Of a stretch of 9,761 nt of DNA, positions 1 to 9,761 are shown in pieces; positions within the stretch are counted from its first letter, which is position 1, and each line of letters starts with the position of its first letter. The stretch lies in IMG/VR virus record IMGVR_UViG_2698536369_000012, positions 1 to 9,761 of that record. One strand, written 5' to 3'. This DNA is from a virus (lineage: Duplodnaviria > Heunggongvirae > Uroviricota > Caudoviricetes). The notes beneath the pieces are model-generated. The model ran no database searches and was not told where the DNA came from. It was given only the letters and a program-made list of their open reading frames with translations. The position numbers were made by a program, and so were the translations under genes.

Positions 1-134
1 GCAATGGCCAGCTCTTCGTCACGCATGTTCTGCATGATGATGCGACGGCGGCGGTAAGCCGGGTCCGCCAGATTCTGCGGATCTTCATCCGGCAGGCGAC
101 GCAGGGTCATCTGCGGATTCACTTCATGCTTCGG
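1..134 (-). pseudogene. 3' internal fragment of a lambda-type major capsid protein E gene; runs off the left edge, 5' side cut by an in-frame TAG at 135-137
   Basis: Minus-strand translation of 1-134 gives PKHEVNPQMTLRRLPDEDPQNLADPAYRRRRIIMQNMRDEELAIA, which I recognise as an internal segment of phage lambda gpE. The next upstream codon (plus 135-137) is a stop, and sequence beyond it is AT-rich and unrelated. Confidence 0.7.
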
Positions 135-213
135 CTACATGAGTCAAATATGAAAGGATGTGAATGAATTTACTTGATAAAACATCATCAAATCGACATT
201 ATTCCTCCTTAAT

Positions 214-237
214 GCAATACAGCGTGCAATACAGCGT
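214..237. repeat. Perfect tandem direct repeat GCAATACAGCGT x2 upstream of the nuclease-domain gene
   Basis: Read directly: gcaatacagcgt at 214-225 and again at 226-237. Confidence 0.6.
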
Positions 238-240
238 GAA

Positions 241-283
241 GTGACATAAATCTGTTCATAGATTCAAGGTGTATAAATATTTA
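241..283 (+). promoter_or_regulatory. Putative sigma70-type promoter region for the 318-1190 gene
   Basis: AT-rich stretch with GTGACA (241-246) and TATAAAT (272-278) about 40 nt upstream of the start; exact -35/-10 spacing is not canonical, so this is tentative. Confidence 0.25.
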
Positions 284-317
284 ACCGTTACTCTGATGAT
301 TGGAACGAGGCTGCACA

Positions 318-1190
318 ATGACTAAAAACACTGGCAGAGATTATGAGGAATTTGTTGGGGCGATTCATCAAAGCTTGATACAAGCTGAGAAAATTTCTCA
401 CTTGAAAAACATCACCGTTGAAGTAAACAAAAAAATCGTAGATAAAAACGGCATAACTAGGCAATTCGATGTGTATTGGGAATTTAACTTAGGAGGTTAT
501 GAATATAAGACCGTAATCGAATGCAAAGACTACGCTTCAAGTGTAAGCATCGAGAAAATTGACGCATTCATCGGAAAAACAGCAGATATTCCCGGCCTAA
601 GACTAATTTATGCAACCAAAACAGGGTATCAAAGTGGGGCTCAAAAAAAAGCCGAACAATATAAAATTGACCTTCTAATAGTTCGTGAAGCTGATAACGA
701 AGACTGGCGCGCGCCAGATGGAACACCACTTATCAAAACTATTCAATTGAATATCGTCGCGATAACTCCCCCCAGAATAACTGCATTCTCACCAATGATA
801 GATGCAAGCTGGCTTGAGTCGCAAAAAAATTTAAACATAGATGATTTAAATTCAAGGTTCAGTCGACTACTTAACAACCAAATATTCATCGTTGATAATA
901 CTACCCACGACAAGTATTCTCTCTGCGACTTAGAAAACTCCTTATCCGCGAGAGTACCTAACATCCAATATGGTGCAGGTACTTACAAAGAAGAGCTAAC
1001 CGACGCTTATTTAGAGTTAGAAAATGGTGATTTAAGATTAAAGCTGAGAGGTTACTCACTTAATTACACATATAACAAACCGGCAGAGACAATTTCTACA
1101 ATTGACTATTCAAAAGAGTTATTGGGAATTGTTCAAAACTATACCTCTGGCGCTAAGAAAATGGTTTTCAAAGACGGAATTATAAAGTAA
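318..1190 (+). CDS. Mrr-like PD-(D/E)xK restriction-endonuclease-domain protein with an uncharacterised C-terminal domain (~290 aa); candidate defence or restriction gene
   Basis: ORF track 300-1190. The first ATG is at 318 with GAGG at 307-310 (7-nt spacing); the track's first codon at 300 is TTG. The N-terminal ~120 aa carry the Mrr catalytic-domain pattern (DYEEFV ... FDVYWEF ... VIECKDY ... GLRLIYATKTGYQSGA ... IDLLIV), i.e. a D...E.K nuclease core. Residues ~125-290 match nothing I recognise. The gene is markedly AT-rich compared with its flanks. Confidence 0.75.
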   Translation: MTKNTGRDYEEFVGAIHQSLIQAEKISHLKNITVEVNKKIVDKNGITRQFDVYWEFNLGGYEYKTVIECKDYASSVSIEKIDAFIGKTADIPGLRLIYATKTGYQSGAQKKAEQYKIDLLIVREADNEDWRAPDGTPLIKTIQLNIVAITPPRITAFSPMIDASWLESQKNLNIDDLNSRFSRLLNNQIFIVDNTTHDKYSLCDLENSLSARVPNIQYGAGTYKEELTDAYLELENGDLRLKLRGYSLNYTYNKPAETISTIDYSKELLGIVQNYTSGAKKMVFKDGIIK

Positions 1191-1247
1191 CAGCATATCA
1201 TTCGAAGTGATTTCCTAATCTAGTGATAAGTCGTTCAATATAAAGAT

Positions 1248-1285
1248 GCGGCCCTTAGCAGGGCCCATTTCACTTTCCTCTCTTC
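1248..1285 (+). terminator. Possible intrinsic terminator downstream of the 318-1190 gene
   Basis: GC stem GGCCC (1250-1254) / GGGCC (1261-1265) with a 6-nt loop, followed by a T-rich tract catttcactttcctctcttc. Confidence 0.35.
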
Positions 1286-1468
1286 GATTAAATCACGAAT
1301 TAAATCACAGCGAACTCAGTTTACAGTCTCAGTATATTTTTTAAACCTATGTTCATTTTCTGCCAATCTGCATTTCATATAATCCGCCCAGCATTTGAAA
1401 AGTGCTTCATCAGTGCCTAGGTAAGCATATAAATATCCCTTAAGAGCTTGGTCAGTAAGCACACTCTC

Positions 1469-1954
1469 CTAATCCCAGTCCACAATGAATTGACGGAAAA
1501 AACCGAATGATTTTGCCGGATCCACATTCCTCCATGTTCCCACCACGATACCAAACACCGGAATCTTAAACGTTACCATTATAGGAAAATCTTCATACCC
1601 AACTTGCTCGATAACTTCTTCTGGTTGTCTTAAACCTGTAGAGATGATACTTCCCTGATAAATTGCTCACCCTCCGGCCAGATGCGCATACCACATTTTG
1701 TCTTCGACATAGATCCACGCAGAAATGATTGCGCCCCCGATACGGCTCTTTCCATAAACTAACAAAACGGGATTCACCTGAGCGGTTGTGTTCGGTACGC
1801 CACAAAACGCATAGGATGCCTTGTAATCCGCATTCTGCTTACTCAATAGCTCACCAGCAGGGCGCATAAGGCTGTTGCGATAGTGCAGAAGTAGGCCACG
1901 ACCATGAAGCGAAGCCAGCGGCGCGTTATTGTCTACTTTAGTGTAGAGCCTGAT
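1469..1954 (-). pseudogene. Decayed gene of unknown family: ~160-codon reading frame with an internal in-frame TGA and no start codon at its 5' end
   Basis: Minus-strand frame translates as IRLYTKVDNNAPLASLHGRGLLLHYRNSLMRPAGELLSKQNADYKASYAFCGVPNTTAQVNPVLLVYGKSRIGGAIISAWIYVEDKMWYAHLAGG, then TGA at plus 1667-1669, then the same frame continues AIYQGSIISTGLRQPEEVIEQVGYEDFPIMVTFKIPVFGIVVGTWRNVDPAKSFGFFRQFIVDWD to a stop at 1469-1471. The track shows only the 66-aa piece (1667-1867). Confidence 0.4.
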
Positions 1955-2015
1955 TCAACGCAGGGGTGAGAGTTTTTTCTGGTGACAGACCGCGACAGAC
2001 GGCAACAAAACCAGA

Positions 2016-2070
2016 GAAAGGAAACGACACTGTCCAAAAAACACGTTTTCAGCATCTGTTGTTTCCTTTC
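2016..2070. repeat. Long inverted repeat: 14-bp arms (one mismatch) around a 27-nt loop, T-rich on both flanks
   Basis: gaaaggaaacgaca (2016-2029) pairs with tgttgtttcctttc (2057-2070); followed by tttttag on plus, and by a T-rich run on the minus-strand side as well. Confidence 0.5.
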
Positions 2071-2235
2071 TTTTTAGTGGGTGTTTCTAATAAAAACATT
2101 AAGTTACGGCGAAGAAGAACGGAAACGCTTTAAACCGGAAAATTTTCATAAATAGCAAAAAACTGCGCGCCTGACGCCCCGTAGTCTGCCGGATTGCCGG
2201 AAAGGACCCGCCAGCCAGAGCGGGCCCTAATTTCA

Positions 2236-2619
2236 TCAACCAATCAGCTTATAGCGACCATCCCGTGCATTGCGGCGTACACGCTCAATCTTGAGGCATA
2301 GCGCCGCATCTGGCTTTTTTGGGACAGGTACGCGGCAATATTCAGAAGCGCGAGGAATATTATTTATCCAGTCGATCACTTCACTTAAATACCAGGCCTT
2401 ACGCCCTTCCGTAACCTGCACACGCTCCGGGAACTCTCCACTAGCCTCAAGGTTTAGCAGTGTACGACGACTCAGGGTTGTAATTTCCATCACCTGATTC
2501 ATATCAACAAGGCGCTCGCTTAAACACATTTTGTCAGCGATAGCTTTTAATTCCTCTACAGCTGGATTCGGGTACATCATTTCGGCAATTGGCTTAAGGT
2601 CATTGTAATCATTCTGCAT
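2236..2619 (-). CDS. AlpA/Xis-type (MerR-like) helix-turn-helix DNA-binding protein, 127 aa, with N- and C-terminal extensions
   Basis: Central segment VMEITTLSRRTLLNLEASGEFPERVQVTEGRKAWYLSEVIDWI fits the AlpA/excisionase pattern (ITxLSRxTL ... G.FP ... W..SEV..WI). Strong RBS AGGGGGA 4 nt before the ATG, 11 nt after the stop of the decoration gene. Confidence 0.7.
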   Translation of the reverse strand: MQNDYNDLKPIAEMMYPNPAVEELKAIADKMCLSERLVDMNQVMEITTLSRRTLLNLEASGEFPERVQVTEGRKAWYLSEVIDWINNIPRASEYCRVPVPKKPDAALCLKIERVRRNARDGRYKLIG

Positions 2620-2630
2620 TGTATCCCCCT

Positions 2631-2972
2631 TTACACACGAGCCAGCGGCTGAACAGAAATACCTGAGCCAACAAACGCTGCAACCTTTACTGACAGTTCT
2701 TTAACAGACTCAGGCCAGTTCAGAGCATCAACATTTAAGACACCTGTCTTATAGACCTGAGCCTGTGTTTTTTTCGCGGTGTCGATTTGTACAGCGGAAA
2801 CATAAACCGCTTTACCTACGCTCGAACCATCCCATACCACCAGTGCACCTGTTGCATCTTCCTGCATCAGTGGCGTAAATGCAGGAATTACCCCTTTATT
2901 AGCTGAAAATATCCCCAGCGTAGTCACCAGTGCTTCAGTGCCAGCCATGAGTTCAGTGTAATGAGTAGCCAT
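2631..2972 (-). CDS. Lambda gpD-type head decoration protein homologue (113 aa)
   Basis: PAFTPLMQEDATGALVVWDG ... YKTGVLNVDALNWPE ... AAFVGSGISV parallels lambda gpD as I recall it ([20 protein letters not shown] ... YKSGTFRYEDVLWPE ... TAFAGTAISIV). Its RBS GGGGGAG overlaps the stop codon of the upstream capsid gene. Confidence 0.8.
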   Translation of the reverse strand: MATHYTELMAGTEALVTTLGIFSANKGVIPAFTPLMQEDATGALVVWDGSSVGKAVYVSAVQIDTAKKTQAQVYKTGVLNVDALNWPESVKELSVKVAAFVGSGISVQPLARV

Positions 2973-2981
2973 TGCTCCCCC

Positions 2982-4022
2982 TTAGCCAATGCGAACGGTA
3001 ACAAAACGATTGATGCGGGCCGGTATTGGCTGTGGTGCTGAATGTGTCTGCACATATTCAATAGCCGGATCACCAGGCACAATATAGTTTTTCGGCGCAA
3101 GTTCGGCTTTAGTCAGCCCCATTCGGATTAGCTCCGGATCCTGAATACCGCCATAGGCGACAATCCCCTGAAGAGCCGTATTGCCAAGCACCATCAAATC
3201 AGGATCAAGGAAATGTTTTTCAGTTCCGTCCTCGTCGGTATAACGCCCGCTGTATACAACAATCGCAACATCGCCCATATACCCTTTAAAACTCACCGAA
3301 TCACCAAGGTCTTTGAGGGCCGTTTCCAGTTCGGAATTAGAACCACGACGGGTATCCAGAGCCTCTTTTATCGCTCTGAATGAACGGTATTTCTTCCATA
3401 CATTACCGCCCATAATGATGATATTAGTGACGCCCTCACTAAATTCTGCGTAGCTCTCAATATCATCATTTGGATCAAAAGTTTCTTTATCCTTACCTGA
3501 CCACTCAGCACCGCCAAACTGAGTGATGATATTTTGTGGTTTAATATTCCAGTCCAGCTCATAACGTTCAATACCATCGCCCTCAATGATATTTTTCCCC
3601 GTTGTGATTGCCTGAACGGCAAGCCATTCAATACGTGCACGAATAGCTTTAGCCTGATTTACAATCGCCTGTTTAACTTTAATATTACGCGCTCCAAAAG
3701 CATTGTATTGCTCAGGTGATACACCAGCAGGGCGCACAGCTAACTTATTTGGATCAATGCTGCTTTTCGGCTTCATATAGCCTGGACGAATTGTTTTTGA
3801 TTCGTACCCTTCGTCACGTGAAACTTTACTACCCACCATAGGAGAACAAAACGCTGCAATTGGGATATTTGGATCGTCGATTGTATCAAGAATAATATCG
3901 CGCGATTCAAACATTACCGAGCGAGTAAAAAACAAACTGGTAAACAACGCATTTAGTTGTTTTTGTACATCTACAGCATTAACCACCTGTACAAGCTGGG
4001 TAGGCGAATATAAATCAACCAT
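2982..4022 (-). CDS. Lambda gpE-type major capsid protein, full length (~346 aa), divergent from lambda
   Basis: Blocks GGAEWSGKDKETFDPNDDIESYA and TRRGSNSELETALKDLGDSVSFKGYMGDVAIVVYSGRY closely match recalled lambda gpE (GGTEWSKRDKSTYDPTDDIEAYA; TRRGSNSELETAVKDLGKAVSYKGMYGDVAIVVYSGQY). The track ORF runs to 4196, but the start is most likely ATG at 4022 (MVDLYSPTQL...), which has GAGG 6 nt upstream and gives a lambda-E-like length; ATG at 4028 is an alternative. Confidence 0.85.
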   Translation of the reverse strand: MVDLYSPTQLVQVVNAVDVQKQLNALFTSLFFTRSVMFESRDIILDTIDDPNIPIAAFCSPMVGSKVSRDEGYESKTIRPGYMKPKSSIDPNKLAVRPAGVSPEQYNAFGARNIKVKQAIVNQAKAIRARIEWLAVQAITTGKNIIEGDGIERYELDWNIKPQNIITQFGGAEWSGKDKETFDPNDDIESYAEFSEGVTNIIIMGGNVWKKYRSFRAIKEALDTRRGSNSELETALKDLGDSVSFKGYMGDVAIVVYSGRYTDEDGTEKHFLDPDLMVLGNTALQGIVAYGGIQDPELIRMGLTKAELAPKNYIVPGDPAIEYVQTHSAPQPIPARINRFVTVRIG

Positions 4023-4196
4023 ACGCATCCTCTTTGCATTCATTAAAAATAATTGTGGATATATGCTATCACCGATATTTGTCATGCGAATACATGCAAC
4101 CGAGTGCAATGTTGTATAAAGTTTTGGGATGACAACTTCAGCGCGGATAATTAGTGTTAATATCTTCACTCCCTTTGGTCTGGATTTATGTAGCAT

Positions 4197-4230
4197 GCCG
4201 GAAAATTTATTTTTTTCCGGCCTTTTTTAT
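4197..4230. terminator. Strong hairpin between the SSB and capsid genes; T-tract lies on the plus-strand side, so function for the minus-strand operon is uncertain
   Basis: gccggaaaa (4197-4205) / ttttccggc (4213-4221), a perfect 9-bp stem with 7-nt loop, followed on plus by cttttttat. May act bidirectionally or as an RNA structural element. Confidence 0.3.
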
Positions 4231-4239
4231 TGGCAATAT

Positions 4240-4689
4240 TTAAAACGGAATATCATCTCCCCATTGCTCATTATCTCCCACTGGTGGATGGCTTCCTTGC
4301 TGATCTGCCTGTTGTTTTGCTCTGTTCAGTGCGTCAGTAGCCTGACCCTGTTGATCTTTTTTGCCGCCCGGTCGCACAGTTCGCGCACTGATTACGCTGT
4401 CTGCGATAACCTGCCACCCCTGCCGCGTTTCACCGTTCTGTCCAGTCCACTGGCTCACCTGCATATTACCCGCCACGCTCAGGAGTTCGCCTTTGTGATG
4501 CTTTGCCAGCGCGTCGGCTTGTCTGCCAAACGCCAGCACAGATAACCACATCGTCGCCGTTCCGTCATCTGCCTGGCTGCATGGCAAAGATACCGCCATC
4601 CGTGCCAGTGTCATGGGTGTTCCCTTGCTGGTATGTTTTACCTGTGGGTCGTCCACCAGCCGCCCGTAAGCTGCTATTTGCGCCGTCAT
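4240..4689 (-). CDS. ssb: Single-stranded DNA-binding protein (SSB), 149 aa
   Basis: OB-fold-like N-terminal region, a Gly/Gln-rich linker (QQGQATDALNRAKQQADQQG) and the hallmark acidic C-terminal tail ending DDIPF. Confidence 0.8.
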   Translation of the reverse strand: MTAQIAAYGRLVDDPQVKHTSKGTPMTLARMAVSLPCSQADDGTATMWLSVLAFGRQADALAKHHKGELLSVAGNMQVSQWTGQNGETRQGWQVIADSVISARTVRPGGKKDQQGQATDALNRAKQQADQQGSHPPVGDNEQWGDDIPF

Positions 4690-4700
4690 GCTGCCTGCTC

Positions 4701-4943
4701 TCAGGACTTAATATTGATGGTTGTCACTTCCTCCGCTTCGGCAATCTCCCGTTCGGTCAGCGTGGCAAAGTTTGCAGCCGCCGTTGTCATGAATGCGCTT
4801 ATCAGTTCGGGATGTGCTTTCGCGTATCCTTCCCCGGCGTTGCGGTCTATTGCCTTAATCGCCACCCTTAGCCAGTGTTCAGCCATATCAAGGGCGCGGT
4901 AATGTGGCTTTATATGTTTGTTCAGTTTTCCTGATGTGTGCAT
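4701..4943 (-). CDS. Hypothetical small protein (80 aa), first gene downstream of the iteron region
   Basis: ORF track; GAGGGGG upstream of the ATG; stop lies 11 nt before the SSB start. No recognisable motif. Confidence 0.45.
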   Translation of the reverse strand: MHTSGKLNKHIKPHYRALDMAEHWLRVAIKAIDRNAGEGYAKAHPELISAFMTTAAANFATLTEREIAEAEEVTTINIKS

Positions 4944-4990
4944 TTTTATTTTTACCCCCTCGTTTAAAAAGTTTTTTGTGCACCACCACC

Positions 4991-5218
4991 TTGTCTACCT
5001 TGTCTACCTGATTAGTTATCAGGCCAGTAATGGCGCGGGTTTCAGGGAGGTAGACAGCCCCAAATAGCTGTCTACCTCATCTCTACCCGTCTCCTTACCT
5101 GTCTACAAAAATGGGTAGATAAGGTAGATAACAGGTAGACAGTGAAAAATAGTTATCTACCTGCATTAATACATTGAAATAAAAGTATTTTATTTCAGTC
5201 AGGTAGACAAGGTAGATA
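4991..5218. repeat. Iteron array: at least 12 copies of the octamer GGTAGA(C/T)A / TGTCTACC in both orientations, with an AT-rich spacer; putative replication origin
   Basis: Copies read at 4991-4999, 5000-5008, 5049-5056, 5069-5076, 5080-5088 (variant), 5100-5107, 5114-5121, 5123-5130, 5134-5141, 5153-5161, 5202-5209 and 5211-5218. AT-rich block at 5161-5200. Sits immediately 3' of the primase-helicase gene. Confidence 0.7.
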
Positions 5219-5232
5219 ACCATTGCCATTTT

Positions 5233-6984
5233 TTATAAAAACGCATCGCAATCATCAGTAGTCGTTGCGTTGGTCTGCGTGACTCCCTTAACTTTTCGCG
5301 TAATATATTCATATCCGTAAACTTTCGCCGCTGACCTCATAGCCTTTCCGAACTCATTCACGCTCAAACATTTCCCCTTTCCTGTATATGCCATGAAGGC
5401 CATATAGACACGGTAAAGGCTGTTTCTGGTCGTGTACTTCACGGTGTCACCACCACCGCCCATCATTAGCCCACGAGCTTCCTCCAGAAACTCCAGCGCC
5501 GCGCAAAGCTCAACAACCGGATCCGTTTGCTGCTTTATTGCCAGAGCTTCATCACCGTCACGCTGTTCCAGTAATAAAGCCCGTGCCTTTTCAGGGTCAG
5601 CAAAATTAGCCAGCAAGCGGCGGATAATTACGGGGATTTCTGCCGCTATCTTTTCCGGTAATTCCTTGTCTTTTTCGTCCTCCCTTACAATGTTGTCGAA
5701 CCGGAAAATCACCCGACGGCGTGACACACCTCCGGCCCGTTCGGTAAAGATCATCGGGTCGTTATTGGTTGCCAGTACCACCGCCCTTATTATCGTCGTG
5801 AATCGCTTCTCATATTTCGGGTTAATTTCAACGGGATCGCCTCCCGTGATTTTCTTGATGCCCGTGCCTTCCCCCGTATATTTCGGCTGATCGGCAAGGA
5901 CGATAAGACGACTCCCGACAACCTGCGCGCGCCCTCCTGCATCATCGAGTGATGTCATCTCTGCGCTTACGGTGTTCTGTTTGCCAGCAAGCAGGGTGGC
6001 AATATGGGTAAATGTACTCTTACCGCTTCCCCCGTCTCCGGTGGCCTCAATGAACATCTGCCAGTCGTAGCGGTTCGCCATAATCATGTATAACGCGGCA
6101 CATATACGCATCATCTTGCGCGGGTCTTTTCCTGCAGCATGTTCAAGCCATTTATGGAAATTTGGCGCATTATCGCGGATGTTTTCCCCTGCTACTGGTG
6201 GCGTGTACTCAATGCCATTGTGCGTGGTGCTCCAGTGCTCCGGTGAGTGCGGAGAAAAATCCCCCGTTTTCAGGTTAAGCACACCATTAGTGAACGGTAG
6301 TAAATCACCGGACGGCTCCCCCATGGGGTCGGCAATAACTTTTAACGCTTCCACGGCGTTATTGATTACACGTTTGCTGAACGTGGCCCTGTGCTCTGAA
6401 TAGATCGCCACCATTTCGCGGCTCAGCTCCATTGTGCTGACCGGACACCATACCCCGCCGCGCCATACGTGGACGATTTCACTTTCTGCATGAACACACA
6501 CACCATCAAAGCGATCGGCAAGTAGTTGTGCACGTTCACTGTCTGCCATCTGTGAAAGTTGCGCCTTTTGCTTCGTCGGAAGATTAAGCACCAGACTTTC
6601 CCCACGCTCGCATTCCTCTTTGAGTCGCGGCAACTGGTCGGATAAATCCACGGGGCTGGTGTCAGTAATCCCCGCGTATTCGTGTACGGTCTTCACTCCA
6701 GCCACAGCCAGTAACGTAACAATCTGCGTCATGCTGTGCTCTGTGATATGTCCTGCGCGGTAAACACGCACACACTGACGATCTTCATCAATGATCCGGT
6801 AATCGATGATGTTTTTCAGTTGCTCATCAGCCAGCACGACAGGCGGCACATCGTCGGCGGCAATATGTTTACCCGCCCATTCCTGCCACTCTTTCGCATG
6901 GCTCCACGCATCACTACCTGCAAAGATGATTACCTCTGTCAGTCTGTCGCGTGGCTGTTTTTTTAAGTTCGGTGCCAGTTTCAT
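5233..6984 (-). CDS. Replication primase-helicase, P4-alpha/D5-type with SF3 helicase domain (583 aa)
   Basis: Walker A GDGGSGKST, Walker B-like RLIVLADQP and motif C VVLATNND are in the order typical of D5/P4-alpha SF3 NTPases. RBS AGGGG lies 7 nt upstream. The start overlaps the upstream gene's stop (ATGA). Confidence 0.85.
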   Translation of the reverse strand: MKLAPNLKKQPRDRLTEVIIFAGSDAWSHAKEWQEWAGKHIAADDVPPVVLADEQLKNIIDYRIIDEDRQCVRVYRAGHITEHSMTQIVTLLAVAGVKTVHEYAGITDTSPVDLSDQLPRLKEECERGESLVLNLPTKQKAQLSQMADSERAQLLADRFDGVCVHAESEIVHVWRGGVWCPVSTMELSREMVAIYSEHRATFSKRVINNAVEALKVIADPMGEPSGDLLPFTNGVLNLKTGDFSPHSPEHWSTTHNGIEYTPPVAGENIRDNAPNFHKWLEHAAGKDPRKMMRICAALYMIMANRYDWQMFIEATGDGGSGKSTFTHIATLLAGKQNTVSAEMTSLDDAGGRAQVVGSRLIVLADQPKYTGEGTGIKKITGGDPVEINPKYEKRFTTIIRAVVLATNNDPMIFTERAGGVSRRRVIFRFDNIVREDEKDKELPEKIAAEIPVIIRRLLANFADPEKARALLLEQRDGDEALAIKQQTDPVVELCAALEFLEEARGLMMGGGGDTVKYTTRNSLYRVYMAFMAYTGKGKCLSVNEFGKAMRSAAKVYGYEYITRKVKGVTQTNATTTDDCDAFL

Positions 6985-7280
6985 TTTTTGCCCCTGAATG
7001 CGTTAATCATGCTTTTCATTTTCTGGATGTTTCCCCGCGCTTTTTCCCTGCTGGTGGGCTTACTGCGGGGTGCGGCATATACCAGGGAAAAATCACGCCG
7101 GAACTGATAAACAGGCATCACGCAGTCATAGCTATACCCCTCACGGCGGTAAGTGATGCGCCGTTCTGCCACGCCTTTAATCTTTACCGTGCCGCCGTAT
7201 TTATCGCGGTAAATATCGCCGTTCATAAATTCAGGCCGAGCGGGGCCGCTGGCAATAAAGCCAGAATTTTTCATTTCCAT
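6981..7280 (-). CDS. Hypothetical basic protein (99 aa), translationally coupled to the primase-helicase
   Basis: ORF track; GAGGAA RBS; 4-nt stop/start overlap with the primase gene. Function not recognised. Confidence 0.55.
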   Translation of the reverse strand: MEMKNSGFIASGPARPEFMNGDIYRDKYGGTVKIKGVAERRITYRREGYSYDCVMPVYQFRRDFSLVYAAPRSKPTSREKARGNIQKMKSMINAFRGKK

Positions 7281-7297
7281 ATTATTTATTCCTCGAC

Positions 7298-7519
7298 TTA
7301 ACTCGACTTATTTGATAGCAGGGCACTATTTATTGCGTCATTGAGTTTTTCTGCTGATTCATCAATAAGTGACAACAGGCCATAAGCAATATTTGCATCT
7401 TCATTGTCATTTATGCAATCAAGCCACATATTTAATATTGCTTTTGCTGAATTATTTAAAGTTAATGAACTTTCTGTACATGCTAACAATTTAAAAAAGA
7501 CTTGCCGTTCTGTATTCAT
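7298..7519 (-). CDS. Hypothetical small protein (73 aa), AT-rich
   Basis: ORF track; GGGGGA RBS 4 nt upstream; start is directly adjacent to the upstream gene's stop. Confidence 0.5.
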   Translation of the reverse strand: MNTERQVFFKLLACTESSLTLNNSAKAILNMWLDCINDNEDANIAYGLLSLIDESAEKLNDAINSALLSNKSS

Positions 7520-7711
7520 TTAATCCCCCAGCAGCTTACTTTCTTCCTCAATCAAAAAACTAGCGACACTTCCCGAAAGACGCGCCAGTAGGCTCGCCAG
7601 TGCGGATATATCAGCATCTGTAATTTTGTTCGGGTATACCTCAAGAAGGCGGCAAATAATTTCTGTCTGGTGCGCACGTTCAGCGGCTTCGTGTAATGTA
7701 ATTTCCTGCAT
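7520..7711 (-). CDS. Hypothetical small protein (63 aa)
   Basis: ORF track; AGAGGTG RBS; its start overlaps the upstream gene's stop by 1 nt (TAATG). Confidence 0.5.
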   Translation of the reverse strand: MQEITLHEAAERAHQTEIICRLLEVYPNKITDADISALASLLARLSGSVASFLIEEESKLLGD

Positions 7712-7896
7712 TAATGCACCTCTTTTAATTCATACACTGCTGAAATAATGACTTGTGATAAGCCATATTCTGATGATTCGCTTCTCACCGCAGCAATAGC
7801 CGTCTGAACATTAACAGCCTTCACATTCTGAGCGATACCAATTGTGTGGCCTAGTGGGTTAACAGCTCGGGCAAATACACGGAAGGTTTTAAGCAT
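7711..7896 (-). CDS. Hypothetical small protein (61 aa), first gene of the minus-strand operon
   Basis: ORF track; GGGAG RBS 5-6 nt upstream of the ATG at 7894-7896. Confidence 0.5.
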   Translation of the reverse strand: MLKTFRVFARAVNPLGHTIGIAQNVKAVNVQTAIAAVRSESSEYGLSQVIISAVYELKEVH

Positions 7897-8177
7897 GACT
7901 CACTCCCTGGCGGATTTTTGCAGCGAATACAGCAACACAACCGGACGGGCAACGGCTACGCGCTTCGCGTTCCGTCCAGGCGGTTACGTGGATGATTTGA
8001 GATTCTCCGGCACTCAGTGCCAGAAAACGCCACACAAAGGCCGTTTGTGTGTGTACAAGGTGTGGTATATGATTTACAGCAACCATAACGGCTCCTAGTT
8101 TACGTTGTTGGTTAGACGCCCCGTATGTGTTCCCAGCACTGCGGGGCGTTGCTCTTTGTATTTCAACAATCCTTTCG

Positions 8178-8255
8178 GTGTGTTTCATGTTATGAGCGCA
8201 TGAAACACACGTCAAGGCTTTTTGTATTTCTTTTTTTGTGTATACTGAAACACAC
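8178..8255. promoter_or_regulatory. Operator-like site set in the divergent intergenic region: perfect 12-bp inverted repeat plus a third half-site overlapping an extended -10 element
   Basis: gtgtgtttcatg (8178-8189), 9-bp spacer, catgaaacacac (8199-8210); a third gaaacacac copy at 8247-8255. TGTG-TATACT (8237-8246) looks like an extended -10 for the 8277 gene. Confidence 0.5.
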
Positions 8256-8276
8256 CGATGATTAGGAGTTTCAGAA

Positions 8277-8582
8277 ATGGCAACGGCTAACAAAAACGCA
8301 AAATCACAACTGACAACTGTCAGAGTCCCACTAGATGTTATGCAAGGGATGGAATCCGTTAAGCTGGACGGTGAAAGCAATGCCGGATTTATCGTAACCG
8401 CCATGCGCGGAGAAATAGCCCGCCGCCAAGCAGAAGGCAGCGGAGAAAATCCCCTTGTGTCGTCACTGGATGCCCTGGCTAAGGTCGAACAAATCGGCAT
8501 CAAAGCAGCCGAGGAGATCGGGCAACTCGTCACCGTCGCGCGTGAAGAACTCCAGCGACGCAAGGTCAAAGAGCATGAATAG
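8277..8582 (+). CDS. Hypothetical protein (101 aa), possibly a small DNA-binding regulator
   Basis: ORF track; AGGAG RBS 8 nt upstream; sits next to the operator-like repeats. N-terminal LTTVRVPLDVMQGM is reminiscent of a ribbon-helix-helix beta strand, but that is weak. Confidence 0.65.
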   Translation: MATANKNAKSQLTTVRVPLDVMQGMESVKLDGESNAGFIVTAMRGEIARRQAEGSGENPLVSSLDALAKVEQIGIKAAEEIGQLVTVAREELQRRKVKEHE

Positions 8583-8639
8583 CCAATATCAGCGCCATAG
8601 TTTGAGGAACGCAGGCGCATTGCTTTACAGGACAGCACC

Positions 8640-8819
8640 ATGAGCGACACAGAATCAACCAAAACACCATCACCAACTCGTAAGAGACGACGCAAAAATA
8701 TAGCGCATGAACATGAATCAGAAAGATTCGCACCTTGTTCGTTTGCTCTTGAGAAATTCCTTAAAGAGCACAGGAAAAAGCTCTCGTTGCAAACCTTGGA
8801 ACGAACCAAATCTGACTGA
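8640..8819 (+). CDS. Possible small basic protein (59 aa), not in the ORF track
   Basis: My own translation from ATG 8640 to TGA 8817-8819: MSDTESTKTPSPTRKRRRKNIAHEHESERFAPCSFALEKFLKEHRKKLSLQTLERTKSD. AGGA lies 7 nt upstream, and a terminator follows. Confidence 0.35.
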   Translation: MSDTESTKTPSPTRKRRRKNIAHEHESERFAPCSFALEKFLKEHRKKLSLQTLERTKSD

Positions 8820-8885
8820 TCACATTGCCCACCAGCCGCAAATGTGGCATTGTTGGTGATGCTTTTGTTTTCCCTTGTTCCCACT

Positions 8886-8916
8886 GGCGACCCTTTTGCG
8901 GTCGCCTTTGTTTTGT
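8886..8916 (+). terminator. Rho-independent terminator between convergent genes
   Basis: ggcgacc (8886-8892) / ggtcgcc (8900-8906), a perfect 7-bp stem with 7-nt loop, followed by tttgttttgt. Confidence 0.6.
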
Positions 8917-9494
8917 CACTGAATGCGGTTACCAAAGTAAAACTCAGGCTGATATTCACGTATCAGCGTTTTTTCTTCTTCCTCCAGCTCACGCTTTTTG
9001 CGCTTACATGCCTGTAGCTCCCTCCCCTTCTCGCTGGCACTTATTTGATATTGCTCTTTACGGCGGGAAAAATCCTGTAATGCACCCCACGGGATACCAT
9101 AAGTCCCCGTTTTTCTGATACCTGGTATCACATTTCTGAATACCCAGTTACTGAAACGATGAGCAAATGTGCCAGGCGTCGTTGCTTTGCGGCTGCGGGC
9201 TATTAGTTTGTAGAAACCTGACTCAGAGATAATTCTCATATTCTGATTTCCTCCTGGGGTGTAAGTTAAATTTACTCCCTTTTCATCATCATCAAGCATC
9301 TGCAACGCCGTACGCGAATTGGTTAGTTCCAGCGCAGCACAAACATCTTTTGCAACAAACCACGGATCGCCGTTCAGATACACCACACGAACGTTCACAC
9401 TATCAAAGCGCAGAACGACGAGATCACGAATATCGCAGAATTTTTTCACTGGACGAGCGTACCCCTTGCCCGTCACGGCAATATTTTTATTCAT
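8916..9494 (-). CDS. Bro-N domain protein (phage antirepressor-like), 192 aa
   Basis: N-terminal ~100 aa (RFDSVNVRVVYLNGDPWFVAKDVCAALELTNSRTALQMLDDDEKG ... ISESGFYKLIARSRKATTPGTFAHRFSNWV) fit the Bro-N / antirepressor N-terminal domain pattern. C-terminal region is charged and coiled-coil-like. Confidence 0.8.
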   Translation of the reverse strand: MNKNIAVTGKGYARPVKKFCDIRDLVVLRFDSVNVRVVYLNGDPWFVAKDVCAALELTNSRTALQMLDDDEKGVNLTYTPGGNQNMRIISESGFYKLIARSRKATTPGTFAHRFSNWVFRNVIPGIRKTGTYGIPWGALQDFSRRKEQYQISASEKGRELQACKRKKRELEEEEKTLIREYQPEFYFGNRIQ

Positions 9495-9513
9495 CGCGTT
9501 TTTACCTTATAGA

Positions 9514-9537
9514 CAAAAAACCCCTCGTGATGAGGGG
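9514..9537 (-). terminator. Rho-independent terminator on the minus strand, downstream of the IS-truncated gene
   Basis: cccctc (9521-9526) / gagggg (9532-9537) with 5-nt loop; on the minus strand it is followed by TTTTTTG (plus 9514-9520). Confidence 0.5.
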
Positions 9538-9543
9538 CATTAT

Positions 9544-9646
9544 TTACTGGTTATTGCTGTTTTGTTTTTCCAGGTTTCCATCCAGGATGCCACTCACCAC
9601 GGATCCATGCCTGAACCTCTGAAAGTCGATACCCTGCAGCACGTTC
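9544..9646 (-). pseudogene. 3' end of a minus-strand gene truncated by the IS insertion
   Basis: Minus-strand frame is open from the IS boundary down to TAA at 9544-9546: NVLQGIDFQRFRHGSVVSGILDGNLEKQNSNNQ. No start codon; the 5' part must lie beyond the IS. Confidence 0.4.
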
Positions 9647-9761
9647 TGAACCGCCCCGGGAATCCTGGAGACTAAACTCCCTGAGAAAGAGGTAAACAGA
9701 ATGACTAAAAATACTCGTTTTTCCCCCGAAGTCCGTCAGAGGGCGATTCGTATGGTTCTGG
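9647..9761 (+). mobile_element. Left end of an IS629-like IS3-family insertion sequence (partial, continues past the window)
   Basis: Terminal sequence TGAACCGCCCCGGGAATCCTGGAGACTAAACTCCCTGAGAAAGAGG matches the IS629/IS3411-type left inverted repeat as I recall it, followed by the orfA start. Confidence 0.8.
9701..9761 (+). CDS. IS3-family transposase OrfA, N-terminal 20 codons (partial)
   Basis: Translation MTKNTRFSPEVRQRAIRMVL matches the N-terminus of IS629-type OrfA; GAGG RBS upstream. Confidence 0.8.
   Translation, partial: MTKNTRFSPEVRQRAIRMVL

Follow-up and report, generated by a model that had tools for sequence, protein, structure and literature searches.

Gene Content and Identity of the Element

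The DNA analyzed here, referred to as the window, is a stretch of 9,761 nucleotides that comprises positions 1 to 9,761 of the IMG/VR virus record IMGVR_UViG_2698536369_000012. Its central part, 2236–6984, carries a gene of a D5-type primase–helicase (pri-rep), an iteron-containing replication origin and an SSB gene, followed by the genes of a lambda gpE-like major capsid protein, a gpD-like head decoration protein and an AlpA-family protein (Table 1). Throughout the text, E' and D' denote the capsid and decoration genes of the satellite, and E and D those of the helper prophage. An earlier sequence-only reading of this region had named these genes, which do lie where it had placed them or close by, and their family assignments are strong in Pfam, PHROGs and the PDB. 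The element is almost certainly a helper-embedded phage-inducible chromosomal island (HE-PICI) of the type of Eco567.11capE (hereafter 11capE), of which the window covers the 9.5 kb at the downstream end. Elements of this kind are already known: their description in 2023 included both the nesting in a helper capsid gene and the presence of a capsid gene of their own (Tommasini, Mageeney and Williams 2023, PMC10111431).

The E' and D' proteins belong to the gpE and gpD families, as had been proposed for the 346-aa and 113-aa products, and both are intact and full-length, as the profile searches and the sequence searches of the PDB revealed. E' matched Phage_cap_E (PF03864) with an E-value of 1.6e-40 (139.6 bits versus a cutoff of 22.9, 324 of the 329 profile positions), phrog_29 with 2e-92, and the lambda gpE structure 7VI9 with 1.4e-75 over residues 12–345. 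The mechanical open reading frame (ORF) of E' extends to position 4196 (404 aa), and the RefSeq homologues begin at the Met that yields 346 aa. D' matched HDPD (PF02924) with an E-value of 4.5e-15 (56.3 bits versus a cutoff of 29.1), and among proteins of solved structure the phage 21 SHP (1TD0, 5e-16) and lambda gpD (1e-11). The order of E' followed by D' is real, and searches of the window ORFs with Pfam and PHROGs revealed no portal, protease, scaffold or terminase gene.

The left end of the window locates the element. The translation of this end, PKHEVNPQMTLRRLPDEDPQNL..., aligns with residues 80–123 of the intact lambda-like gpE of a related genome, L001. At the nucleotide level the end is 96–98% identical to the prophage E genes of L001 and of another related genome, L002, and the identity ends at the 10-bp block TGCTTCGGCT. 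By this alignment, the left 136 bases of the window are outside the element and belong to the E gene of a helper prophage, cut at codon 80. A 10-bp block at this codon has been reported for the site E:Phage_cap_E:80, at which 201 elements were mapped (Tommasini 2023, PMC10111431). We defined the att core by the comparison of the window junction with the intact attB in L001 and with both junctions in L002. The doubled motif TGTATTGC-N4-TGTATTGC, specific to the attP arms of HE-PICIs, has one exact match in the window versus none in 200 shuffles, and its near edge is about 82 bp from the att center versus the published distance of 81 +/- 2 bp. In HE-PICIs, a second copy is positioned 132 bp on the int side of the core (Tommasini 2023, PMC10111431); the window holds a single copy, and the position of the int-side one falls outside it. 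The left junction is the only one inside the window, and the second junction was found in the relatives L002, L004 and L008 (the last one carrying 11capE), in which the gene of a tyrosine integrase occupies a position beyond the right end of the window.

The relatives in complete E. coli genomes split the capsid gene (L002, L004, L008) or the portal gene (L001) of otherwise complete lambdoid prophages, and an element of this type in L006 likewise resides inside a split capsid or portal gene of such a prophage. In L001, L002, L004 and L008 they are co-oriented with the helper late operon. The region 2005–4896 of the window is 97.3% identical in nucleotide sequence to 11capE; the E' and D' proteins each differ from their 11capE counterparts by one residue, and the second AlpA protein (AlpA2) is identical. 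The claim of novelty in the sequence-only reading fails for this reason, since the E'/D'/AlpA block is nearly the same as the published one. Its view of the locus as a satellite whose own head genes are of the E and D type only, rather than prophage structural DNA, stands. A full head module of the lambdoid kind, canonically ordered, in which it would have seen a sign of ordinary prophage DNA, does occur in the related genomes, but it belongs to the helper: because this module is part of the helper prophage whose E houses the satellite, the element is not ordinary prophage DNA.

The four zones published for HE-PICIs, namely Integration, Bro, Replication and Late (PMC10111431), were recovered in the window in their published order: alpA and the Bro-N gene; DUF4222, pri-rep, the iteron origin and SSB; the late genes E', D' and the second alpA; and then a lambda-type cos and variable cargo. 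A megablast search of 2236–6984 against 50,697 phage records returned no match, and a search of the whole window with Rfam at E <= 0.1 revealed no C4/isrK-type immunity RNA and no other family.

Table 1. Features of the window in order of position. Strand is left empty for features without one. L001 is the related genome whose satellite splits a portal gene.
Feature	Position	Strand	Description
Helper E, 3' part	1..136	-	Window 3-134 corresponds to gpE residues 80-123; gene interrupted by the satellite
att core TGCTTCGGCT	127..136		10-bp identity block of site E:Phage_cap_E:80
Doubled motif TGTATTGC-N4-TGTATTGC	214..233	-	Specific to HE-PICI attP arms
Mrr_cat-like restriction endonuclease	300..1190	+	Accessory cargo; likely start ATG 318; Pfam Mrr_cat 1.2e-4
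Lambda-type cos	2011..2226	-	cosQ-like box, variant cosN, cosB R3/R2/R1
cosB elements	R3 2110-2127; R2 about 2056-2073; R1 2015-2026	-	From the lambda/helper/11capE cos alignment
Variant cosN GGGCGTCAGGCG	2168-2179	-	12 nt
AlpA2	2236..2619	-	Second, cos-proximal AlpA-family winged helix-turn-helix (wHTH) protein, 127 aa
D'	2631..2972	-	gpD/SHP-family head decoration protein, 113 aa
E'	2982..4022	-	gpE-family HK97-fold major capsid protein, 346 aa
Hairpin	4197..4221		In the 217-nt gap between SSB and E'; terminator-like on the + strand only
SSB	4240..4689	-	Pfam SSB 7e-15; phrog_44 3e-37
Conserved 80-aa protein	4701..4943	-	phrog_1231; 94% identity to the L001 homologue
Replication origin	4988..5224		Just downstream of the primase gene
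pri-rep	5233..6984	-	583 aa; Pfam D5_N 7e-15, DUF5906 5e-10, Pox_D5 6e-4
DUF4222 protein	6981..7280	-	Pfam 9e-24; 4-nt overlap with the primase start
Three small conserved ORFs	7298-7519, 7520-7711, 7711-7896	-	97-100% identity to annotated L001 genes
Icd-like cell-division inhibitor homologue	7889-8086	-	97-100% identity to an annotated L001 gene
YlcI/YnfO-family protein	8277..8582	+	NCBIfam NF041551 1.6e-17; phrog_6522
Bro-N protein (Bro zone)	8916..9494	-	Pfam Bro-N 5e-20; L001 homologue 100% identical
Integrase-proximal alpA	9551..9646	-	Last 31 codons; first 54 codons removed by the insertion sequence (IS)
IS3-family IS end	9645..9761		Interrupts the satellite

E' and D' as a Satellite Lineage

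The E' protein is 55% identical to c1499 of EcCICFT073, the crystal structure of which is 3BQW, and 42% identical both to lambda gpE and to the helper gpE; D' is 54% identical to c1500 of EcCICFT073 and 38% to the helper gpD. Among the 50,697 phage records, the best match of E' was lambda gpE (41.7%), and that of D' reached about 40%. In a large protein database, the matches to E' form two groups, one with 49–99% identity, and the other, made up of helper and phage gpE proteins, with about 41%. The former includes proteins from Escherichia, Cedecea, Scandinavium, Serratia, Edwardsiella, Salmonella and Lelliottia. Three of its non-Escherichia members were examined in their context, and each is encoded by an island with int, AlpA and primase genes, in which E' is followed by D', and which never has a portal or protease gene of its own; one of these islands is at fis, one is inside a portal gene, and one is at another chromosomal site. 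The E'-then-D' pairing was constant in the examined satellites of Escherichia, Serratia, Edwardsiella and Salmonella.

The AlpA2–D'–E' trio is present, with its genes intact, in 365 of 5426 complete E. coli genomes (~7%). Pairwise dN/dS values for E', D' and AlpA2 were between 0.05 and 0.19 (0.06–0.19 for E' and 0.05–0.19 for D'), similar to those of the primase gene. Judging from these comparisons, E' and D' form a diverged clade under purifying selection, satellite-only wherever the context was examined, and do not appear to be fresh captures. Their conservation argues for a maintained function, and the conserved cognate cement protein favors a structural one. The lambda gpD protein binds expanded shells only. 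Since the cognate cement protein is conserved, a role of E' as a mere decoy would be hard to reconcile with the data.

One short region of E' departs from this divergence. In the patch 3254–3387 (codons ~216–240, LDTRRGSNSELETALKDLG...), E' is 80–86% identical in nucleotide sequence to helper E, as compared with ~45–50% elsewhere, and it has exact 17–29-mers in common with helper alleles. The patch, which is absent from c1499 of EcCICFT073, suggests an old event of gene conversion between the capsid genes of helper and satellite. A chimeric protein, P0044, is encoded by a metagenome scaffold (L009, 2801–3829). In this protein, residues 1 to ~225 of a helper gpE are fused to the C-terminus of E', with the crossover in the common patch. 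The chimeric gene is preceded by portal, protease and helper D genes and followed by D' and AlpA2, all on a single 4.4-kb scaffold. No such chimera was found in the 5426 complete E. coli genomes. P0044 is either an assembly artefact, which is plausible because exact words of 17–29 nt are common to both genes, or a rare recombinant. H86, considered as a reciprocal chimera of E' and helper E, was rejected as such, because it is an E' truncated by IS1. The spacer between the E' stop and the D' start (2973–2981) is 9 nt long and in frame, and in one contig the two genes are joined by read-through into a fusion of 463 aa (P0005) with both Pfam domains.

The cos Site and Packaging Signals

The cos region of the window is 74% identical to the sequence upstream of terS in helper prophages. 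Its cosB elements were placed by an alignment with the cos sites of helpers, of 11capE and of lambda. The conservation of R3, R2 and R1 extends to lambda and to the lambda-type helper of L004. As in Gram-negative phage-inducible chromosomal islands (PICIs), the element has a helper-type cos, and there are no lysis genes, tail genes or full set of head genes among the window ORFs.

The cosN of the satellite, GGGCGTCAGGCG, differs from that of lambda, GGGCGGCGACCT, and the variant is common to 11capE and two other capE-embedded satellites (the satellites of L002, L004 and L008). The canonical cosN was present in all helper prophages examined (6/6). With a variant cosN in the satellite and a canonical one in the helper, non-complementary cohesive ends would arise. 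In IMG/VR, the variant occurs in 56 contigs, of which 47 are satellite contexts. In three of the 56 (L015, L055, L066), it lies upstream of a gene of Nu1 99% identical to the lambda type, and in L015 the variant cosN and Nu1 are followed by terminase, portal, protease, D and E in the lambda order.

The cosB of the L001 and L002 helpers, presumably phage-21-like, differs in sequence, and the satellites embedded in them or similar to those embedded in them carry lambda-type R elements. Only the helper of L004 has a cosB that matches the satellite type, and hence packaging may in some cases depend on a helper other than the embedding prophage. With R3, R2 and R1 retained and no homologue of Rpp in the element, the simplest reading would be that a lambda-type Nu1 recognizes this cos directly.

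Replication Module, AlpA Genes and Cargo

The product of pri-rep matched phrog_864 ('DNA primase') with an E-value of 2e-160. Its profile support covers only the D5/SF3-helicase part, and the N-terminal ~135 aa are without a recognized primase domain. Directly after the gene, within 4992–5218, there are nine exact AGGTAGAYA iterons in both orientations, as compared with 0.07 expected by chance. A pri-rep gene with an iteron origin directly after it is characteristic of Gram-negative PICIs, and the origin occupies the position that was described for them (PMC6092414). Gram-negative PICIs are also described as having alpA beside int and genes that run in a single direction (Fillol-Salom et al. 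2018); in the window, the last 31 codons of alpA are present, and the core genes are all on one strand with the exception of the ylcI/ynfO gene.

The sequence-only reading had described the minus-strand genes as one unit with coupled translation. This holds for two stretches: for E'–D'–AlpA, the spacers of which (9 and 11 nt) both contain a Shine-Dalgarno sequence of the GGGGGA type, and for DUF4222 and the primase gene with their 4-nt overlap. It does not hold across the 289-nt gap of the origin and the 217-nt gap (4023–4239) between SSB and E', which break the unit. Promoter-like sites were no commoner in the window than in shuffled sequence, and we claim no promoter.

AlpA2 was recognized by Phage_AlpA of Pfam (7.6e-9), phrog_2790 (1e-49) and the PDB entry 8C3T (2e-9), and is 33% identical to the integrase-proximal AlpA. 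Its gene, which is conserved in 11capE and in a Serratia PICI at fis, lies between D' and cos, in the position held by Rpp in EcCICFT073. A homology of AlpA2 to Rpp was considered and rejected: in sequence, AlpA2 resembles neither RppA nor the neighboring 137-aa CFT073 protein, and it is by this measure an ordinary AlpA-family wHTH protein. Since a MerR-like wHTH fold is common to Rpp, Nu1 and AlpA, a comparison of folds would not discriminate between AlpA2 and Rpp relatives.

The integrase-proximal alpA gene is cut by the IS, the end of which matches two IS3-family copies of CFT073 at their left ends with 94% identity. In EcCICFT073, alpA is essential for induction and transfer (PMC6092414). 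Because an IS3-family element cuts this gene, the copy of the satellite in the window is probably stranded, that is, not inducible and immobile, locked in place with the helper capsid gene kept split.

The cargo between att and cos (137–1760) consists of the gene of the Mrr_cat-like endonuclease and small ORFs, and was found in 3 of the 5426 complete E. coli genomes. The endonuclease gene is named 'restriction endonuclease' by PGAP in L004, and neither PADLOC nor NCBIfam gave a defense assignment for it or for the small ORFs. The shuffling of modules is illustrated by the L004 genome (SCU-316), in which the same cargo is next to another pri-rep and another Bro zone. A segment of 182 bp downstream of cos (1571–1752) matches L002 13471–13652 in inverted orientation with 90% identity, and a search of the window for inverted repeats that could explain this inversion revealed none.

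Comparison with Known Systems

The closest known element is 11capE of E. coli NRG857c, for which excision and replication were demonstrated (PMC10111431). It is at the same site at codon 80 of helper E, with the same 10-bp core and doubled arm motif, and has the same late block (ORF80, SSB, E', D', AlpA2 and cos) and the same variant cosN. It differs from the window element in the pri-rep allele (606 aa versus 583 aa in the window, with no megablast match), in the Bro zone, which in the window has the Bro-N gene, and in its cargo, HEPN and DUF262 instead of the Mrr-like endonuclease. Moreover, the window copy has its alpA disrupted by an IS3-family element.

The model Gram-negative PICI is EcCICFT073 (Fillol-Salom et al. 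2018, 2019). Its c1499 and c1500 are a capsid and a head decoration protein, respectively (PMC6092414), and their genes follow each other as E' and D' do in the window. The order of alpA, pri-rep, origin, E', D' and cos is common to both elements, as is the use of lambdoid helpers; int precedes alpA in EcCICFT073 and would be outside the window in the element described here. Induction and high-frequency transfer by a helper phage were shown for EcCICFT073 (Fillol-Salom et al.). In contrast to the window element, which is inside its helper, EcCICFT073 is at a chromosomal site. It has RppA, and since its cosB is devoid of lambda R elements, TerS has to be redirected by Rpp (Fillol-Salom), whereas the window element is without Rpp, retains R3/R2/R1, and has a second AlpA instead. 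The cosN of EcCICFT073 is canonical, and that of the window a variant. A capsid gene is present in 21 of 29 reference Gram-negative PICIs (PMC10111431). The statement of the sequence-only reading that classical E. coli PICIs encode no capsid was thus wrong, as these 21, the c1499/c1500 pair and 11capE all attest.

Capsid-forming PICIs (cf-PICIs) are likewise satellites with an HK97-fold major capsid protein of their own, but they also encode a portal, a protease, head-tail connectors and TerL, none of which has a counterpart in the window, and only their tails come from the helper. The Ccm of SaPIbov5 is also a single satellite HK97-fold capsid homologue that acts within the assembly pathway of a cos helper (cited in PMC6092414); it makes small capsids and is not known to have a decoration partner. 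In EcCICFT073, by contrast, the packaged DNA is phage-sized, and the capsid homologue had no detected effect. Lambda gpE and gpD and the phage 21 SHP belong to the same protein families as E' and D' and align with them over the full length, at 42% (E') and 38–40% (D') identity. The order of the genes in the window is reversed, and, unlike lambda E and D, E' and D' are detached from the portal, protease/scaffold and FI genes.

Proposed Role of E' and D' and Alternative Explanations

The mechanism that we propose combines the published model (PMC10111431) with the sequence features of the window. After the induction of the helper, the satellite would replicate passively within the composite, and then from its own origin with the participation of pri-rep. 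It would be transcribed by read-through from the helper late operon, upon activation by AlpA, or both, and its excision would restore helper E. Satellite concatemers would be cut and packaged from their own cos by the lambda-type terminase of the helper, which could act directly because the satellite cos retains the Nu1-binding elements R3/R2/R1. Heads to be filled would be built on the helper portal, protease/scaffold and completion proteins, and E' and D', a translationally coupled pair, would enter this helper-driven assembly, or substitute in it, as shell and cement subunits. In particular, E' would serve as the intact capsid gene while helper E is split, and under laboratory conditions both proteins would be redundant with helper E and D.

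Taken as a whole, i.e., the identity of the element as an HE-PICI together with this mechanism for E' and D', the explanation appears to us a likely one. Its parts differ in strength. That E' and D' are genuine shell and cement subunits, which take part in the assembly driven by the helper and serve as a backup for its split E, we give only slightly better than an even chance, because the sole knockout test was negative. That an old capsid/cement lineage, to date found in satellites alone, builds PICI shells, or co-builds them with helper gpE and gpD, using the helper portal, protease/scaffold and terminase, we put forward tentatively, as a possibility with the balance tipped against it.

Several points weigh against our explanation. 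The structural contribution of E' and D' is so far our proposal. The supply of shell subunits to a helper by the satellite, which the sequence-only reading had also envisaged, has been tested once: in EcCICFT073, the deletion of c1499 or c1500 left both transfer and interference with lambda unchanged (Fillol-Salom et al.), and the packaged DNA of this island was phage-sized (PMC6092414). The authors of the HE-PICI study could detect no virions of the 11capE helper (PMC10111431). Packaging by the embedding helper is assumed, and 6 of the 12 positions of the satellite cosN are different in every embedding helper examined. The integrase gene and the second att junction would be beyond the IS, outside the window. 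Finally, we infer rather than observe the co-transcription of the replication and capsid genes, because the 289-nt and 217-nt gaps and the hairpin at 4197–4221 lie in the way.

The alternative that survives best, although we consider it unlikely, is that E' and D' are interference or decoy factors, either poison subunits for helper heads or baits for capsid-sensing defense. The capsid homologue Ccm of SaPIbov5 interferes with the helper (cited in PMC6092414); E' is just 42% identical to helper E, so that mixed lattices could be defective; and c1499 and c1500 are dispensable for EcCICFT073 transfer. However, the deletion of either of these genes did not relieve the interference with lambda, which in EcCICFT073 is explained by Rpp, and a conserved, translationally coupled cognate cement protein would be needless for a poison or a decoy.

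It is much less probable, to the point of being hardly tenable, that E' and D' were captured recently from among the helper late genes and are functionless, neutral passengers on the way to loss. The late zone of HE-PICIs was described as dynamic and as capturing clusters of helper late genes (PMC10111431), the knockouts in EcCICFT073 had no phenotype, and the 25-codon patch of E' is 80–86% identical in nucleotide sequence to helper E, all of which would fit such passengers. Recent capture is nevertheless difficult to reconcile with the closest phage relatives at only 41.7% (E') and 40% (D') identity among 50,697 records, and with a clade that spans several enterobacterial genera and was always found in satellites where examined. 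Neither do dN/dS values of 0.05–0.19 and genes intact in 365 complete genomes fit a lack of function.

Two further explanations concern the element itself. A degraded mosaic prophage, with leftover structural genes beside a foreign replication module, was the alternative offered by the sequence-only reading, and it would account for lambda-family head genes without their usual neighbors and for the IS with the truncated alpA; we reject it as very improbable, given the precise att junction with the published core and arm motif, the recurrence of the same bounded element in many genomes at different late-gene sites, its own cos, and the demonstrated excision of 11capE. Least credible is an assignment to cf-PICIs, with which the element has in common a major capsid gene of its own, or to P4-like satellites, which likewise have a D5-type primase/helicase, an AlpA-family protein and a cos, since the portal, protease, head-tail adaptor/connector and TerL that define the former are absent from the window and from its complete relatives, while psu, sid or delta type ORFs of the latter were not found (there were neither unassigned ORFs of a fitting size nor profile matches) and the cos is of the lambda rather than the P2 type.

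If an old capsid/cement lineage does build or co-build PICI shells, as we tentatively suggest, elements of this type would be intermediate between classical PICIs, which take all head parts from the helper, and cf-PICIs, which take none, and a packaging identity specific to the satellite would then include the variant cosN and the cos-proximal second AlpA. The puzzle is the retention of an intact capsid and decoration gene pair, under purifying selection, by ~7% of complete E. coli genomes, even though its knockout has no phenotype. Its solution would tell whether there is a state of partial capsid autonomy, between that of classical PICIs and that of cf-PICIs.

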